A stretch of 64,000 nucleotides of DNA. It comes from a virus (taxonomy: Duplodnaviria; Caudoviricetes). The translations under genes and the position numbers were made by a program. Of this stretch, positions 1,436 to 35,700 are shown piece by piece; within the stretch, counting starts at the first letter, position 1, and every line of letters begins with the position of its first letter. The notes beneath the pieces were generated by a model that saw only the letters and a list, made by a program, of their open reading frames with translations, did no database searches and was not told the DNA's origin. The stretch spans positions 1 through 64,000 of IMG/VR virus record IMGVR_UViG_3300017700_000721. One strand, 5' to 3'.

Positions 1436-1603
1436 TTAGTCCTCACGGAGAAGCTGACTACGACCGCCCTTCAGGAGACGCTTCAGGATCGCACGGGAAC
1501 CGCGGTTGGCAGCACGGCGGGTCTGCTTATGAGGACGGCCCCAGCTACCGCCAGCACGGCGGCCGATCTTCATCACGGTGTTGTTCAAGCTACCCATTTC
1601 CAT
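1436..1603 (-). CDS. Small Arg/Lys-rich basic protein (55 aa)
   Basis: MEMGSLNNTVMKIGRRAGGSWGRPHKQTRRAANRGSRAILKRLLKGGRSQLLRED*; CGT/AAG/GGT-rich codons like the apparently highly expressed genes; below ORF-track cutoff. Confidence 0.65.
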   Translation of the reverse strand: MEMGSLNNTVMKIGRRAGGSWGRPHKQTRRAANRGSRAILKRLLKGGRSQLLRED

Positions 1604-1919: not shown

Positions 1920-1948
1920 ATTATATCACAAGGTGAGCTCCTTGTCAA
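1920..1948 (-). promoter_or_regulatory. sigma70-type promoter
   Basis: TTGACA-17-TATAAT with extended TG. Confidence 0.9.
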
Positions 1949-1959
1949 CACTCTAATCC

Positions 1960-2617
1960 ATTCCGTCGGTGCAACCCTGCTATGCGTAGGTTGCATAAAA
2001 GTTCGGCTGCCGGGGCTTTTCTGGCGTCCTGAGAGGGACCGACCCTGGCTTCTGGTGCGAGGTATAAGCTCCACACCACTCTCTATTATCCCGGCCGACC
2101 GGGCACCTTCGCCGGGTGCACCCGGCTCTGGTCTCTTTGTCTGTATCGGGCTGGTATCCAGGAGAGCGGCGCCGCCCTTTGCCCCTCCACCACTTCGCTT
2201 GTCCGACGAGAATGGCCATCCCGTCCTTCCGCTCGACTTCCCTATTCGACTCGATCGCGTCGAGCCTACTGAGGGTTGTGCCCAATCTCTAATATCGAGG
2301 CCTGCGGAACGCGGTCAGTACGTCGACCAATCGGGGGAGAGATACGATTTCCCGCCGCGTCCGCCTGCCCGACGGTGCGATGCGACCCAGGGGATCGGTT
2401 ACGCCGCGTCGAAGAGGTTGGACTTGCCGCCTGCACCAGCTTCCTTTTCAGTCTACTGGAAGATCGACAAGTCCATTAGAGGGTATCCTATCGGATGATC
2501 CAGCCGGCCCCGCTTCAGTTGCCGGGCTGCCCCTCTCAAGACTTCCTCGCCTTCTAACGCACCCGGCGAGGTTGGGTGCCATCGTCGTGAGGATGCGCGT
2601 TCTGTTTCCCTCTTGAC
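1960..2617 (-). ncRNA. Putative large structured ncRNA (~660 nt)
   Basis: Own consensus promoter at 2624-2652; H-type pseudoknot 2545-2579; 12-bp long-range helix 2531-2542/2026-2037; 10-bp helix 2465-2474/2420-2429; mismatches are G-U on the minus strand only; no credible ORF. Confidence 0.75.
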
Positions 2618-2623
2618 CTCACT

Positions 2624-2652
2624 ATTATATCATAACGGAGTCAAGGTGTCAA
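2624..2652 (-). promoter_or_regulatory. sigma70-type promoter
   Basis: TTGACA-17-TATAAT with extended TG. Confidence 0.9.
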
Positions 2653-2668
2653 CTAACAATGCATGCAG

Positions 2669-3112
2669 TTAAGGAATACCTGTTATGCGTTCTTGATCAT
2701 CCTCGATTGGCCGGTAGGCGTAGTTGCCTGACTCGTAGGTTCTAGGCTCCGTTCCCTTCCCCAGGAACGCTCTCCGCCTTGACTTTCTCAGCCACTCTGT
2801 TAGACTCAGGGTCCCTGCTCCTGGTCCGCTGACGGGAACCCACTCGCCCAAGGGATGAAGGGTCCGGCGCTCCCACTGGGGCGGCAATCTCGCGACGGCG
2901 CCTTTCTGAGGCCGAGAGGTTCTCACTCGGGGTACTTGCCCCGAGAGGTCGGGCTGCTTTAACACCCACTTCCTGGCCAGGACTTTGCTCAGGAAGCTCT
3001 CCACCCTCTTTCCGTCTTTCTCGACGCTGTACACCCGGCTTTGGCTTGTTTTTACTCGTCGGATGAGGTGGCCGTTGAGAACGATCGGGGAACTCCTTGT
3101 TCCTTGCCTCAC
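2669..3112 (-). CDS. Hypothetical protein (overlaps RNase H C-terminal extension)
   Basis: 147-aa ORF, GTG start, globular-looking N-terminal half; ends just before next promoter. Confidence 0.5.
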   Translation of the reverse strand: MRQGTRSSPIVLNGHLIRRVKTSQSRVYSVEKDGKRVESFLSKVLARKWVLKQPDLSGQVPRVRTSRPQKGAVARLPPQWERRTLHPLGEWVPVSGPGAGTLSLTEWLRKSRRRAFLGKGTEPRTYESGNYAYRPIEDDQERITGIP

Positions 3113-3560
3113 GCATGGCCTCCTTCGCCATCTGGTCGCAGAGATTGTTCACACTAAACCTCGAGCCGTCTCCTGGCTGATGCCCTTTGACGTGCTTGGT
3201 TCGGAAGGTTAGGTTGAAACTCTCCGCCATCTTGAAAACGGCATCCCGGATCTCCTTGGACTCGGGGCTAAGTCTTTGCTTCGGTGTCCCGCCTACGTAG
3301 GTAAAGACTCCGAGCGCAGATAGACTGTCACACTGGACGAGGACCTCGTCGCCTACGAGGATGCCGCCTGCTTGAAGCCCTGAGTAAAGGACGTTTACGG
3401 CGGCTCGTGCCTCTGCGATGTCAGTCTTGTCTGTCTTTGCCTTTAGGACACCTTTGAACTGGAGTCCCTGCTGCATGCGATTGCTTTTAACCCAACCGCC
3501 ATATCCCACGATCCCCGTCTGTTGACAATGGGATGCGTCGGAGAAGAGCGTCACTAGCAA
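2742..3560 (-). CDS. rnhA: Ribonuclease HI
   Basis: FSDAS, AEARA, VQCDS, KHVKGH, NNLCDQMAK catalytic motifs; low-complexity tail. Confidence 0.9.
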   Translation of the reverse strand: MLVTLFSDASHCQQTGIVGYGGWVKSNRMQQGLQFKGVLKAKTDKTDIAEARAAVNVLYSGLQAGGILVGDEVLVQCDSLSALGVFTYVGGTPKQRLSPESKEIRDAVFKMAESFNLTFRTKHVKGHQPGDGSRFSVNNLCDQMAKEAMREARNKEFPDRSQRPPHPTSKNKPKPGVQRRERRKEGGELPEQSPGQEVGVKAARPLGASTPSENLSASERRRREIAAPVGAPDPSSLGRVGSRQRTRSRDPESNRVAEKVKAESVPGEGNGA

Positions 3561-3564
3561 ATCA

Positions 3565-4155
3565 TTACCTCCATGTTCGATGTTTGTCCTTGAAGTGTAA
3601 AACCTGTCGACGAGGGCTATCCTGCTCCTGCACGAGGAGTCGATCGTTGTATATAACTTCTACGGTCGCCGGTATTTCTACTTCGTTGGTGGTCCCGTCA
3701 ATGTTAAATTGCGTAAGGAGTATTGAAATCTCGTCCCCTTTCCCTGGTTGGGTCTGCTCGGGAGGCTCAAGGTCGCGAGCATGGACAGCGAACTTGGGTC
3801 CAATCTGGACAGGATAACCCATGTAGAAGGTGACTGGTGGGTACGGTACAATGTCCGGTGTGGCACACTTCCCGCTTTGAATGAGGTAATACTGCAGGTC
3901 CTTGTGCTCAATGTCCGTGATCTCAATCAGACAGACAAGAAGGTCCAATGTGTTGTAATGGGCAATCTCCTCGTTAATACGAAGGAGAATGTCCTCGGCG
4001 TTCCGCCAGATATGGTCTGATGTGGAACCCGGCGCCGGGCGGTCTGTGGGTAGGCCTACTATAGCGATGTTGTTCCAGTCGGGAGCGTTCCCAAACAATG
4101 AGTGGGCTACTGTCTTCAGTCCGCCAAGGAGAGTGTCCCATGCGTTAACCATCAC
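3565..4155 (-). CDS. Hypothetical protein
   Basis: 196-aa ORF coupled to neighbours. Confidence 0.7.
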   Translation of the reverse strand: MMVNAWDTLLGGLKTVAHSLFGNAPDWNNIAIVGLPTDRPAPGSTSDHIWRNAEDILLRINEEIAHYNTLDLLVCLIEITDIEHKDLQYYLIQSGKCATPDIVPYPPVTFYMGYPVQIGPKFAVHARDLEPPEQTQPGKGDEISILLTQFNIDGTTNEVEIPATVEVIYNDRLLVQEQDSPRRQVLHFKDKHRTWR

Positions 4156-9610: not shown

Positions 9611-9751
9611 CTAGTGCACGGTCTTCGGCGGAACGTACCGCTTCACAAACTCTTCTTTGTCCGGGCAGTTACGCCCAAACCAGCGGTGCATGCCGGTTAC
9701 CAACTCGAAAGCGTATTCCATCTTGATTGCGATCAGAACTTGCTCGAACAT
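9611..9751 (-). CDS. Small early protein (46 aa)
   Basis: GAGGAGG SD; MFEQVLIAIKMEYAFELVTG... Confidence 0.65.
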   Translation of the reverse strand: MFEQVLIAIKMEYAFELVTGMHRWFGRNCPDKEEFVKRYVPPKTVH

Positions 9752-9775
9752 AAACCCTCCTCAGGCTACCATACA

Positions 9776-9804
9776 ATTATAGCATATTCGGAGGCATTTG
9801 TCAA
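9776..9804 (-). promoter_or_regulatory. sigma70-type promoter
   Basis: TTGACA-17-TATAAT. Confidence 0.9.
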
Positions 9805-9819
9805 CTATTCATTTCAGAC

Positions 9820-31972: not shown

Positions 31973-32595
31973 TAGATCTCCAATGAGCGAATTTGCCGCT
32001 CCACTATTTCTTTTGCTCGCCGCTCGCCACGATCCTCAATCAGCTTAGAAGGATCTTTCGAGGGGATCATCAGCCTGTTGATTTCCAACGAGTCTCTCAG
32101 CCTCTGGTCCGCAGCGTCAGTAGCTTTCTCGCCGGGACCGTCGTGATCAAAGGCGGTCCAGACTTGGCGAGCGTATCTCTTCAAGAAGACTAGTAGGTGC
32201 TTAGCTATACCTTTAGAGAGACGGGCGTAGACCGCATAGTCCGGCACGCATCTCTTGATTGCTGCACGGTCGAACAGCCCCTCGGTCAGGATCACCCGAC
32301 CGTTCAAGTAGAGTAGTTCGTGGTCCTGCTCTGATCCGTAAAGGATCGGCAGGTGGCTCGCGTTCGTTCCAACAGCCCATCGGTATTCATGGACGTCAGC
32401 TCTGCGTGTCTGAACACCGGCAATCTGCCCTCCCATGCTTCGGCAGGGCCAGGCTATCACAGGGTTGTCGGTTCGTATTGTCACACCCTCGACGTTGTGT
32501 ACCCCCTCACCTAAAGACCTGATATCCTCCTGCTCGATCAAAGCAGGGGTATAAGATCTGGTGAGTAGGTACGCTCGATGGGCGTCTGAAAGCAT
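31972..32595 (-). CDS. DNA primase catalytic (Toprim) part lacking zinc finger
   Basis: YL..R, ILTEGLFD, AFDHDGPG..A, KDP. Confidence 0.85.
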   Translation of the reverse strand: MLSDAHRAYLLTRSYTPALIEQEDIRSLGEGVHNVEGVTIRTDNPVIAWPCRSMGGQIAGVQTRRADVHEYRWAVGTNASHLPILYGSEQDHELLYLNGRVILTEGLFDRAAIKRCVPDYAVYARLSKGIAKHLLVFLKRYARQVWTAFDHDGPGEKATDAADQRLRDSLEINRLMIPSKDPSKLIEDRGERRAKEIVERQIRSLEI

Positions 32596-32601
32596 GGGAC
32601 C

Positions 32602-32757
32602 TTAGATACGGCCCAGCAGGAGCAGGATCAGCACGATGACCAGCACGATGCCAATGCCGCCGCTCGGATAAAACCCCCAATTGATAGAGTGCGGCCACTG
32701 AGGCCACGCGCCAACCAGCAATAGTATCAGGATGACTAGAAGGATTGTTCCAAGCAT
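32602..32757 (-). CDS. DUF3309-family small membrane protein
   Basis: MLGTILLVILILLLVGAWPQWPHSINWGFYPSGGIGIVLVIVLILLLLGRI. Confidence 0.85.
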   Translation of the reverse strand: MLGTILLVILILLLVGAWPQWPHSINWGFYPSGGIGIVLVIVLILLLLGRI

Positions 32758-32760
32758 GGC

Positions 32761-35700
32761 TTACTCCGCTGCAACTAGCTCGTGCCCAACGTCGATCGCC
32801 TGCAGCTGGCGTGTGAAGAACACGTCCATATCTACAGGATAGTTGATGTCGAGGCCGTTGTCGGCTACAAGCGAGATACCCGACTTCAGCTTCTCGCCTC
32901 GGAAGAGGTCCATCTCAAGCGGCCCGCCAGTCACAGAACAGGTCTGCACTTCACCCGCAAGGGCTGCGAAGACGTCGGTTTCGCCCGTCTCCTTCGCCAG
33001 CTGCAGGTAGCCGTCGCAATAAATGGGGTAAGCCTTCCAGCTGAAACCCTTTCGGCCGGTGACTGCCTCCAGCATGGCCATCGGATTGTAGTTACCCGAG
33101 ATCACCATTCGCACAAGGGTGCCGCGCTGGTCAGGCATCCACTGGTAGGTTACCTGGCGGACGTCCTTCGCTCCGAGAGCCTGCTCGATGGTGACGAACA
33201 CACCCTTGCCCTGGGTCTTCTTGATCTTGATCTGACCTAGCTTGCCTTCGTACTTGCGCTCGAAATAACGCTCGATGTCACCTCGAATACGGGCGTGACT
33301 CATACCCGAGTTCGGGATGAACATCGAGTAGATGGCATAGTCCACGTCGTTTCGCAGGACGGTAAGATGAGTGTCCATGCGAATGTCGATGATCTCGCCT
33401 TCCCTGATGTAGGTGTTAGCCTCGGCGATCATCCCGCGGAGCTCGCTCTCTGAGACAGGGCTCGAGAGCGAGAAGTCATAGATGTTGTGCCCGAAGGTCC
33501 AGTCCTTCGCCATGTTGGCACCAGCCGCAATGCGCGCATGCCCAATCGAGCCCACGAAAGCATCGTTGAACTTCTTGGACACGTTCATCAGGGCGCGGGG
33601 GATCTGGTACTGGAAGTAGCCCTTCATGACGAACCTGTAGATCGGGTCCGTTGTCCGGAAAAGCACTCGAAGGTGATAGCTCTTTTCGCGAGACTGGGCG
33701 GCGGCCGAGATCTTCTCGGTCGGGATGGTCGGTGCAACTCGGCGGCCTACAATGGCCTTGATAAGGGCAGTGTTAGGCTTACCATCCTTGTCCGGGTCAC
33801 AGGCGCCGCACTCGTTGACATGGCAAACACCCTTGATCGTCCGGGTGCTGAGGCAATAAGCCACACCCTGGTAAGCAACTGCCTTCACGTAGCCGCGCCA
33901 AAGGATCTCCTTCGAGGTCGAGTAAGCGATGTCTTCCCACGGGAAGATGTACTCGAAGGACTTCTCGCCCCAGGTGATCTCCAAGTCAATATTCGGGTCG
34001 CGCTTGACACGCTCAGCCCACCTGGTCCAAGTTCCCTTCGGGACGTTACCGTAGAAGCGGAAGCCGTCCTTGAAGTGCGACTGGATCAGAAGGCCGGTGA
34101 TGTTGCGACCACCGTGGTTAATGGTGTTCGAGACAAGGGGCTCCTCTCCGGAGACGGAAAGACGACGACCCCAGCCCAGCTCTTTTGCTCTTCCGAAGAG
34201 CTTATCCAGACTGCGGGTGCCATGCATGATCGCAGCATTGCAGGGAGCAAACTGGAGGGCAGTGAAAGCAGAAGGGAAGAGCGGGGTGAATGAAACACGA
34301 AAACGGGTCGAAGCTCCCAGCTTTTGTCGGAGGGCATTGACTTTCTCCATCAAGGAGCAGAACTCCTGGACGTCGTGATCCTGCTCGAGCCCGGTCACGA
34401 TCTGGAAGAACTTGAGCTCACCTGCCCCTTCCTTCATCATCTCGGCCGCACACATCAAGATCTCCCACTCCTGGAGGTTCTTGTTGAGGTAGGCTCGGGT
34501 GCGGCCGCTGATGCCCTCGACGCCGAGGGTAAAGTTGGACTTCTTCAGCCAACGCTGAACCTTGACCTGCTCCGGCGTCTCGGCCAGCATGTCAATACGC
34601 TGGGAGATCAAGCCCACCTTGTAACCGCGCTTAACGCTCTCGGCCACGAGGGGGAAGAAGTCGGAATACTGGTTGAAGTTCAGCGAGAAGAAGCTGACTT
34701 CCTTGGTACCTTGGTTGCGTGTGGCGTTGTCGAGGGCGTCCATCACCTTCCCGAGCGAACGCTCCCGGTAGGGGCCCTCAGACCCTTCTCGGCAGAAAGA
34801 GCAAGCACCCCAACCGGCAGATCCAATGCAGCCAACGGAGCCTGCGATAGCCACATCGACTGACGCACCGTCTCCTGTGTAAGGGAGAATCTTCTGCTCA
34901 AGGGTTCGCACGGTGTCGAGGTTATCGACGTTCGACCGCGTGACGGGAAACTGAGCATAGTCACAGCCTTCCTTCCGACGGATGGAAGTTATCGAGCCCT
35001 TACCGTCGAACTCGTGGACGTAGCAATCCGGCTCGTAAAAGCCCATCACTCGTCCGTGGCAGTTGCGGAGGATCTCCCGCTTGGACCAGCCCTTCTGCTT
35101 GCCCTCACGGACAATACGCATGAACTCCTTACCCGCTTCCTCGCCATCGCCGTAGATCACGGCGTCTACCAAGGTCGAGTATTTTGTCCCATCCGAGGCA
35201 ATAAACTCCCCGGCCAGGGGCGCGGTCGTTCCGGAATTGGCTCCACCGACGAGGATAATCGGAATGTCCTCGCGCTCCATCCGCTGCTCCTTGAAGAGCG
35301 GGATGCCCGAGTCGTGAAGCAACGGCACGAAGTTTAGCTGCTCCATCGACACGGCATGGGTGATTGAAAGAACATCGAAGCGATGAGCCTTCAACTTGGT
35401 TCCAACACCAAACCAGACCGGAAAGTTGTTCTCCAGAAGGAGACGATAGTCGTTCGGCTTGGGAAGGAAGGCCAGGTCGCAGAAGGTGTAATCCTCCTCG
35501 CCGTAGATCTGCGCCATCAGCGAGTGCGACATCGAGAGACTCACACTCTCGTAGGTCGATAGCCGGGCGATCAAGATCCGGACTTCAGCGCTCTGGTAAC
35601 GCTCCATGTCAGGGCTGTTCGCTTCGCCTCCGATGTAGGCGTACGGGCTGTCGAATTTGTGGAGGTTGTTTCGGAAGAAATCGAGGAGGGGCGGACCGTC

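Follow-up and report, generated by a model that had tools for sequence, protein, structure and literature searches.

A promoter-driven non-coding stretch ahead of the receptor-binding genes of an uncultured SPO1-like phage, tentatively read as a long tandem-promoter leader

Results

The locus lies between an RNase H gene and a block of receptor-binding genes

The DNA analyzed here is the first 64 kb (the window) of an IMG/VR phage record of 118,081 bp whose two ends overlap by 123 bp. The minus strand carries all genes of the phage. Its major capsid protein is ~40% identical to the counterparts in SPO1-like Herelleviridae, and metagenomes hold uncultured relatives with capsid proteins 55-90% identical to it; the phage represents a distant SPO1-like (Herelleviridae-like), uncultured lineage. 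It encodes a PolA-type (family-A) polymerase, a primase and a helicase. Despite all genes being on one strand, the cumulative GC skew reaches a minimum at 3001-4000 and a maximum at ~49 kb, extremes that may be a replication signal of small amplitude.

The interval under study (positions 1960 to 2652) is a conspicuous gap in a genome otherwise tightly packed with genes. The features of the locus are the following, in the direction of transcription:

2742..3560, minus strand: RNase H gene, upstream neighbor of the interval, with the RNase H domain in residues 1-160
2624..2652, minus strand: promoter P1, a perfect 12-of-12 match (TTGACA, 17-nt spacer with an extended -10 TG, TATAAT)
1949..2617, minus strand: putative untranslated transcript body of ~670 nt, bounded by P1 and the -35 of P2
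2545..2579, minus strand: candidate H-type pseudoknot, at ~+39 to +73 of the P1 transcript
2524..2542, minus strand: 5' arm of a predicted long-range closing helix, pair probability ~1.0 in the nested ensemble
2419..2475, minus strand: predicted hairpin domain, whose closing helix has 11 bp, one of them G-U
2026..2044, minus strand: 3' arm of the predicted closing helix, of a length not unusual against shuffles
1970..1995, minus strand: 3' hairpin UGCAACC/GGUUGCA, without a U-tract
1920..1948, minus strand: promoter P2, a perfect 12-of-12 consensus 704 nt downstream of P1
1604..1913, minus strand: second untranslated stretch, ~310 nt from P2 to the 55-aa ORF, with a fold z-score of only -0.4
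1436..1603, minus strand: 55-aa Arg/Lys-rich ORF, the earliest coding signal downstream of P1 and P2
1..1362, minus strand: first 454 codons of the gene for a 617-aa tail-fiber-like protein, which crosses the start of the record

The tail-fiber-like gene, whose relatives have the SASA esterase domain, heads a block of ~14 kb made of receptor-binding and esterase genes. Further large genes follow it, and the relatives of the block's tail-fiber-like products include SASA and GDSL esterases. The same block holds a 264-aa protein of the RlaP family (genome 108872-109666, L004 4872-5666, minus strand), which matches the Pfam entry 'RNA repair pathway DNA polymerase beta family' nucleotidyltransferase with E = 2e-19. 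An arginine-rich stretch in the 55-aa ORF, KQTRRAANRGSR, resembles by eye the motif with which lambdoid N proteins bind RNA. On the upstream side, the coding signal is weak or almost nil in the final ~117 codons of the RNase H ORF (2742-3095, minus strand), which encode a low-complexity Arg/Pro/Gly/Ser tail; relatives of this RNase H are 190-200 aa long or have another C-terminal domain in place of the tail.

Tandem consensus promoters precede the only long non-coding stretches

We scanned both strands of the whole genome for sigma-70 promoters with the pattern TTGAC[AT], 16-18 nt, TA[TC]AAT. The scan returned 18 consensus promoters, every one of them on the gene (minus) strand, where we estimate that ~0.2 would be expected by chance. 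As read from the listing, 16 of the 18 also have an extended -10 TG. The perfect TTGACA-17-TATAAT promoter that a first-pass annotation, made from the sequence alone, had placed at the head of the interval is indeed present at 2652-2624 on the minus strand, and it has the extended -10 TG as well. Transcription from P1 would start near 2617.

For all 18 promoters we then measured the distance from the -10 hexamer to the next ORF with a coding signal. A gene starts 5-48 nt past the -10 in 14 cases, and two more promoters are internal to ORFs. Long non-coding sequence follows just two, P1 (1020 nt) and P2 (316 nt). A promoter without a nearby gene is the exception in this phage, and this is the strongest result in support of the finding. 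The genome scan yielded no further consensus promoter from 1920 to 106175, going round the ends of the record.

Two other features of the promoter set were apparent. In five of the 18, an ATG follows the -10 by 5-6 nt (-10 ends at 100186, 97126, 95692, 86366 and, in the window, 20012); the mRNAs of these five genes are probably leaderless, which may hint at the host lineage. In addition, the promoters at 9776 and 106175 closely match each other between ~-45 and +25 and diverge downstream (window 9640-9815; genome 106040-106215, that is L004 2040-2215), and they look like a duplicated promoter cassette.

The interval has no coding signal

The first-pass annotation had seen no credible ORF in the interval, and this was borne out in several ways. 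A codon-usage log-odds scan, trained on the long ORFs of the phage, gave a clear signal in all neighboring genes, whereas ~3100 to 1650 was silent on both strands; no other stretch of the genome without signal is as long. The six frames of the interval, read from stop to stop, had no Pfam or PHROG match. The longest stop-free frame runs for 230 codons on the plus strand, which exceeds 99% of composition-preserving shuffles (p ~0.009), and another stop-free frame has 162 codons (p ~0.03 against shuffles). When the 229-aa plus-strand frame was searched against 1.84 billion representative proteins, no real homolog was found, the one marginal match covering 40 residues at E = 6e-4. The RNA strand is purine-rich and its complement correspondingly poor in stop-codon purines, which may contribute to the long antisense frame. 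With the codon-usage scan, Pfam, PHROG and the representative-protein search all negative, we rejected a hidden protein gene. Taken with the promoter scan, these results support a stretch that is exceptional in this genome, apparently promoter-driven and not translated.

No intrinsic terminator separates P1 from the downstream genes

There is no minus-strand intrinsic terminator between P1 (2624) and the downstream genes. A strict scan found none from 2624 to 106175, round the ends of the record, and only six across the whole 118-kb phage. The 3' hairpin at 1970-1995 is not an intrinsic terminator, since it is without a U-tract. The discrete RNA of ~660 nt proposed in the first-pass annotation is thus not borne out, as nothing of this kind closes the interval. 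In the absence of a terminator, P1 transcripts should pass P2 and run into the 55-aa ORF and the tail-fiber block. Because canonical terminators are so few in this phage (six in 118 kb), the missing terminator is weak evidence for read-through.

The predicted fold is stable but made of helices expected by chance

The RNA strand has a predicted minimum free energy of -282.9 kcal/mol (z = -3.7; 0 of 100 shuffles as low), against z = -0.9 for the complement. In a series of 176 consecutive windows of 666 nt along the genome it ranks 6th by GC-adjusted free energy and 12th by strand asymmetry. Coding sequence of the same phage can fold as well: 12 control windows of 400 nt from the same strand gave z-scores of +0.4 to -5.8 (mean ~-1.9), and three pieces of the RNA of that length reached only -0.8 to -2.0. 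Uninterrupted stems in the RNA are neither more numerous nor longer than in its own dinucleotide shuffles. With helices at shuffle level, and coding windows that reach the same fold energy, the 'ornate' fold described at first is not supported.

The individual pairings are nevertheless in the sequence. The long-range helix described as 12 bp pairs 2542-2531 with 2037-2026 as claimed, and the one described as 10 bp is found as 11 bp (2475-2465 with 2429-2419). Shuffles give helices like the first equally, and the second is not beyond them; neither is evidence in itself, though both dominate the predicted ensemble, in which the closing helix would join the ends of a domain of ~517 nt with a probability of ~1. 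The GCUCGAC/GUCGAGC pair and the UGCAACC/GGUUGCA hairpin (1995-1970) can both be read, and G-U wobbles occur on the promoter (minus) strand only, as had been noted. By eye, the predicted fold has few GNRA-type loops. A hairpin with a GUAA loop is seen, also by eye, ~60 nt into the P2 transcript. On these predictions, the structural case for an ornate conserved RNA is weak.

Sequence composition complicates the picture further. The interval is about four-fold enriched in CCGGG/CCCGG. The motif GCCGGGTG has ten copies in the genome (both strands), four of which fall in 2100-3040.

A compact candidate pseudoknot near the 5' end is rare in the genome

Among the structural features, only the compact 5' pseudoknot is rare. 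Its arms, which the first-pass annotation had pointed out, are present at 2579-2545: stem 1 has 6 bp (GCACCC/GGGUGC) and stem 2 has 7 bp (CCUCGCC/GGCGAGG), all Watson-Crick, with AA as loop 1, 7 nt in loop 3 and no spacer between the arms. The 118-kb genome has only four compact pseudoknots of such geometry, three of them on the minus strand and one on the plus strand, and these counts give an expectation of ~0.01-0.02 per 666 nt. In the predicted local fold, stem 2 forms and both partners of stem 1 are free, an arrangement compatible with co-transcriptional folding. The same bases have an alternative contiguous partner of 11 bp at 2104-2119 and a third partner in the minimum-free-energy structure; such multiple partners follow from the four-fold CCGGG/CCCGG enrichment and make any single pairing less certain. 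On the folding models, the compact pseudoknot is the likeliest candidate for a functional element.

The interval matches no catalogued RNA family

ROOL and GOLLD, the large structured phage RNAs to which the interval had been likened, often have tRNA genes as neighbors in phages and prophages. This neighborhood is lacking here, as ARAGORN detected neither tRNA nor tmRNA genes in the 64-kb window. We searched the whole window against Rfam 15 and obtained no match at the gathering score; a permissive search of 1300-2800, with E up to 10, gave two chance matches (mir-343 and Proteo-phage-1, E = 3-8). ROOL was rejected, as its covariance model matched neither in the window nor at E up to 10 in 1300-2800, and GOLLD likewise had no covariance-model match in the window or in 1300-2800. 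A group I or group II intron was also rejected: there is no Rfam intron match, the RNase H domain is complete upstream, and the extra C-terminal domain found in an RNase H homolog (that of fragment G009, described below) is not encoded downstream. Without an Rfam match and without tRNA genes, the interval is not ROOL, GOLLD, an intron or another catalogued RNA, and the membership of a ROOL/GOLLD-like class suggested by the first-pass annotation finds no family to rest on.

RNAs of this size are plausible as a kind in such phages. According to a review, abundant long non-coding RNAs lie near tRNA genes in the staphylococcal Herelleviridae (phages K and 515A1) (PMC10383478); they are a precedent and not a match. 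Like the interval, these RNAs and ROOL and GOLLD are phage-borne, 500-800 nt long, free of ORFs and predicted to be multi-branched. The interval differs from ROOL and GOLLD in having no model match, no adjacent tRNA genes and no homologs that we could find.

The block containing the interval is absent from a syntenic relative

Homologs of the interval were sought at several depths. A blastn search against GenBank phages gave nothing, and neither BLAST nor nhmmer found a homolog of the RNA in nine fetched fragments of relatives; within the phage's own genome, only the promoters recur by the same two methods. Comparing the RNA with the IMG/VR records of capsid relatives, twelve and then twenty of them, revealed no homolog; the nine fragments are members of this set that were fetched whole. 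Scanning IMG/VR for the DNA pattern of the pseudoknot gave two chance matches, both within high-GC coding sequence. The fragments of relatives also contain consensus promoters, but in no case does a long non-coding stretch follow.

The neighboring proteins are hardly better connected. A capsid-profile search returned 33 loci in IMG/VR and 18 short metagenome contigs and none in GTDB genomes; the closest capsid relatives are 90% identical (P0007, on a 49.7-kb JGI contig) and 70% identical (P0018, on a 113-kb contig). In IMG/VR, the tail-fiber profile found nothing, and neither the neighboring proteins nor the polymerase turned up a close relative there. Among 5.8 billion proteins, relatives of the RNase H are at most 36% identical, and the tail fiber has a single relative (P0127, on a 27.9-kb Logan contig), at 50%. 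By these searches the neighboring genes appear to be near orphans.

One relative covers the syntenic site. In G009, an IMG/VR fragment whose capsid protein is 60% identical, positions 31993-33964 hold an RNase H gene, ~230 nt, and then the homolog of a 508-aa gene that lies at 104620-106146 in our genome. What is missing at that position is a block of 14.5 kb, made up of the receptor-binding genes together with the 55-aa ORF and both untranslated stretches. Its absence from the syntenic position of G009 marks the block as a mosaic module, which would have arisen by mosaic insertion in our phage, or else been lost by deletion in G009.

Discussion

We consider the non-coding transcription unit likely to be genuine, and a long leader behind tandem promoters is its most probable role. 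In the reading that we favor, tentatively and with less than even confidence, the interval is the upstream part of a cis-acting leader of ~1 kb for the receptor-binding operon. Host sigma-70 RNA polymerase would start at P1, near 2617, and copy ~670 untranslated nt. The transcript would continue through P2 (1948-1920) and ~310 more untranslated nt before it enters the 55-aa basic ORF and the tail-fiber/esterase operon of ~14 kb. The leader would act in cis, for example on the timing, read-through or stability of the operon transcript. Two points favor this reading: no terminator intervenes to end the transcript, and P1 and P2 are the only promoters of their class that the operon has. Its chief weakness is that P2 could drive the operon by itself, so that the sequence between P1 and P2 needs a role of its own.

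Several known systems share parts of this arrangement. The early region of T7 has tandem host promoters, A1, A2 and A3, and an untranslated leader before gene 0.3. The likeness lies in strong tandem promoters of the host type whose first gene comes only after several hundred nucleotides of untranslated sequence; the promoters are 704 nt apart here and ~125 nt apart in T7, the total leader here is ~1 kb, and the genes served are tail-fiber-like here whereas those of T7 serve host takeover. The putL and putR elements of HK022 are cis-acting antiterminator RNAs of ~70 nt with two stem-loops. As in put, a compact structured element, the candidate pseudoknot at ~+39 to +73, lies within the first ~80 nt of the transcript of a strong phage promoter that would serve a long operon. 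Unlike put, it is a pseudoknot and not two stem-loops, it has no sequence or model match, and the strict scan from 2624 to 106175 found no downstream intrinsic terminators for an antiterminator to override. The T4 gene 32 mRNA likewise has an H-type pseudoknot close to its 5' end; there the regulated start codon lies ~40-70 nt downstream of the pseudoknot, whereas here the next credible one is ~1 kb away.

The arguments for a leader compete with those for an RNA that stands alone. P1 could give a high early output of a large structured RNA, acting in trans and processed or terminated by non-canonical means before P2, and such an RNA, about as large as ROOL and GOLLD, would found a new phage class. 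The layout is suggestive, with a strong promoter, ~670 nt without an ORF and then a second full promoter, and so are the fold energy (z of -3.7 against -0.9 for the complement, 6th of 176 after GC adjustment), the rare 5' pseudoknot and the closing helix predicted, with a probability of ~1, to unite the ends of the ~517-nt domain. The abundant long non-coding RNAs of the staphylococcal Herelleviridae K and 515A1 offer a further parallel (PMC10383478). Against this, no terminator was found, the helices equal those of shuffles, coding windows reach similar or lower z-scores, and the predicted fold has few GNRA-type loops. There is also no Rfam match, no tRNA neighbor, and no homolog in the genome itself, the nine fragments of relatives, GenBank phages or the IMG/VR pattern scan, and the sequence is missing at the syntenic site of G009. 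We regard this possibility as rather unlikely. A bolder version, that the pseudoknot and the ~517-nt domain form a discrete and abundant early RNA of a new class, which would travel with a mobile cassette of receptor-binding proteins and act in trans on the host or the virion, strikes us as doubtful.

The absence of the whole block, interval included, from G009 fits a functionless spacer at a mosaic joint. The receptor-binding block of 14.5 kb would have been acquired or rearranged by recombination, and the 1.1 kb between the RNase H gene and the 55-aa ORF would be leftover DNA with two working promoters and incidental folding. Chance-level helix content agrees with this, as does the scarcity of relatives of the RNase H and the tail fiber (one or a few distant ones among 5.8 billion proteins), and the overlong stop-free frames (230 codons, p ~0.009; 162 codons, p ~0.03) could be a trace of decayed coding sequence. 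Yet the phage is otherwise tightly packed, with promoters 5-48 nt from their genes, two perfect 12-of-12 extended -10 promoters are unlikely to survive unused, and the six frames show no remnant of a protein family; the purine-rich RNA strand may also help to account for the long antisense frame, though the shuffles preserved composition. On balance we think a spacer unlikely. Still another role for tandem promoters would be in replication. The primary origin of T7 is transcription-primed and has tandem promoters, and the primer of ColE1, RNA II, is a folded untranslated RNA of ~550 nt made from a strong promoter. By analogy, an R-loop formed from P1 and P2 could be trimmed by RNase H and extended by the family-A polymerase. 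Both an untranslated promoter-driven RNA and the enzymes (RNase H and a Pol I-type polymerase) are at hand as in ColE1, with the RNase H gene directly upstream of the interval; the whole-genome cumulative GC-skew minimum falls beside it at 3-4 kb, the RNA strand is purine- and G-rich with a GC skew of up to +0.36 just past P2, and GCCGGGTG is clustered in 2100-3040 (4 of 10 genome copies). The skew is, however, small in amplitude and noisy, and in contrast to ColE1 a weak GC-skew minimum is the sole support specific to an origin, with no antisense unit like RNA I seen. No AT-rich unwinding element or iterons were found, and with a primase and a helicase encoded, a primer made by RNA polymerase is not needed. 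An origin thus seems very improbable to us.

To our knowledge, strong host-type promoters that yield an RNA without a protein are rare in compact phage genomes, and the studied cases that we know of (phi29 pRNA, HK022 put, the T7 leaders, ROOL and GOLLD) all had specific roles. The interval is an orphan sequence, and it stands as a well-defined candidate rather than as a demonstrated ornate RNA. The genes that the element heads determine host range in an uncultured SPO1-like lineage, and an RNA with a regulatory or independent role at this position, if true, would be worth knowing.
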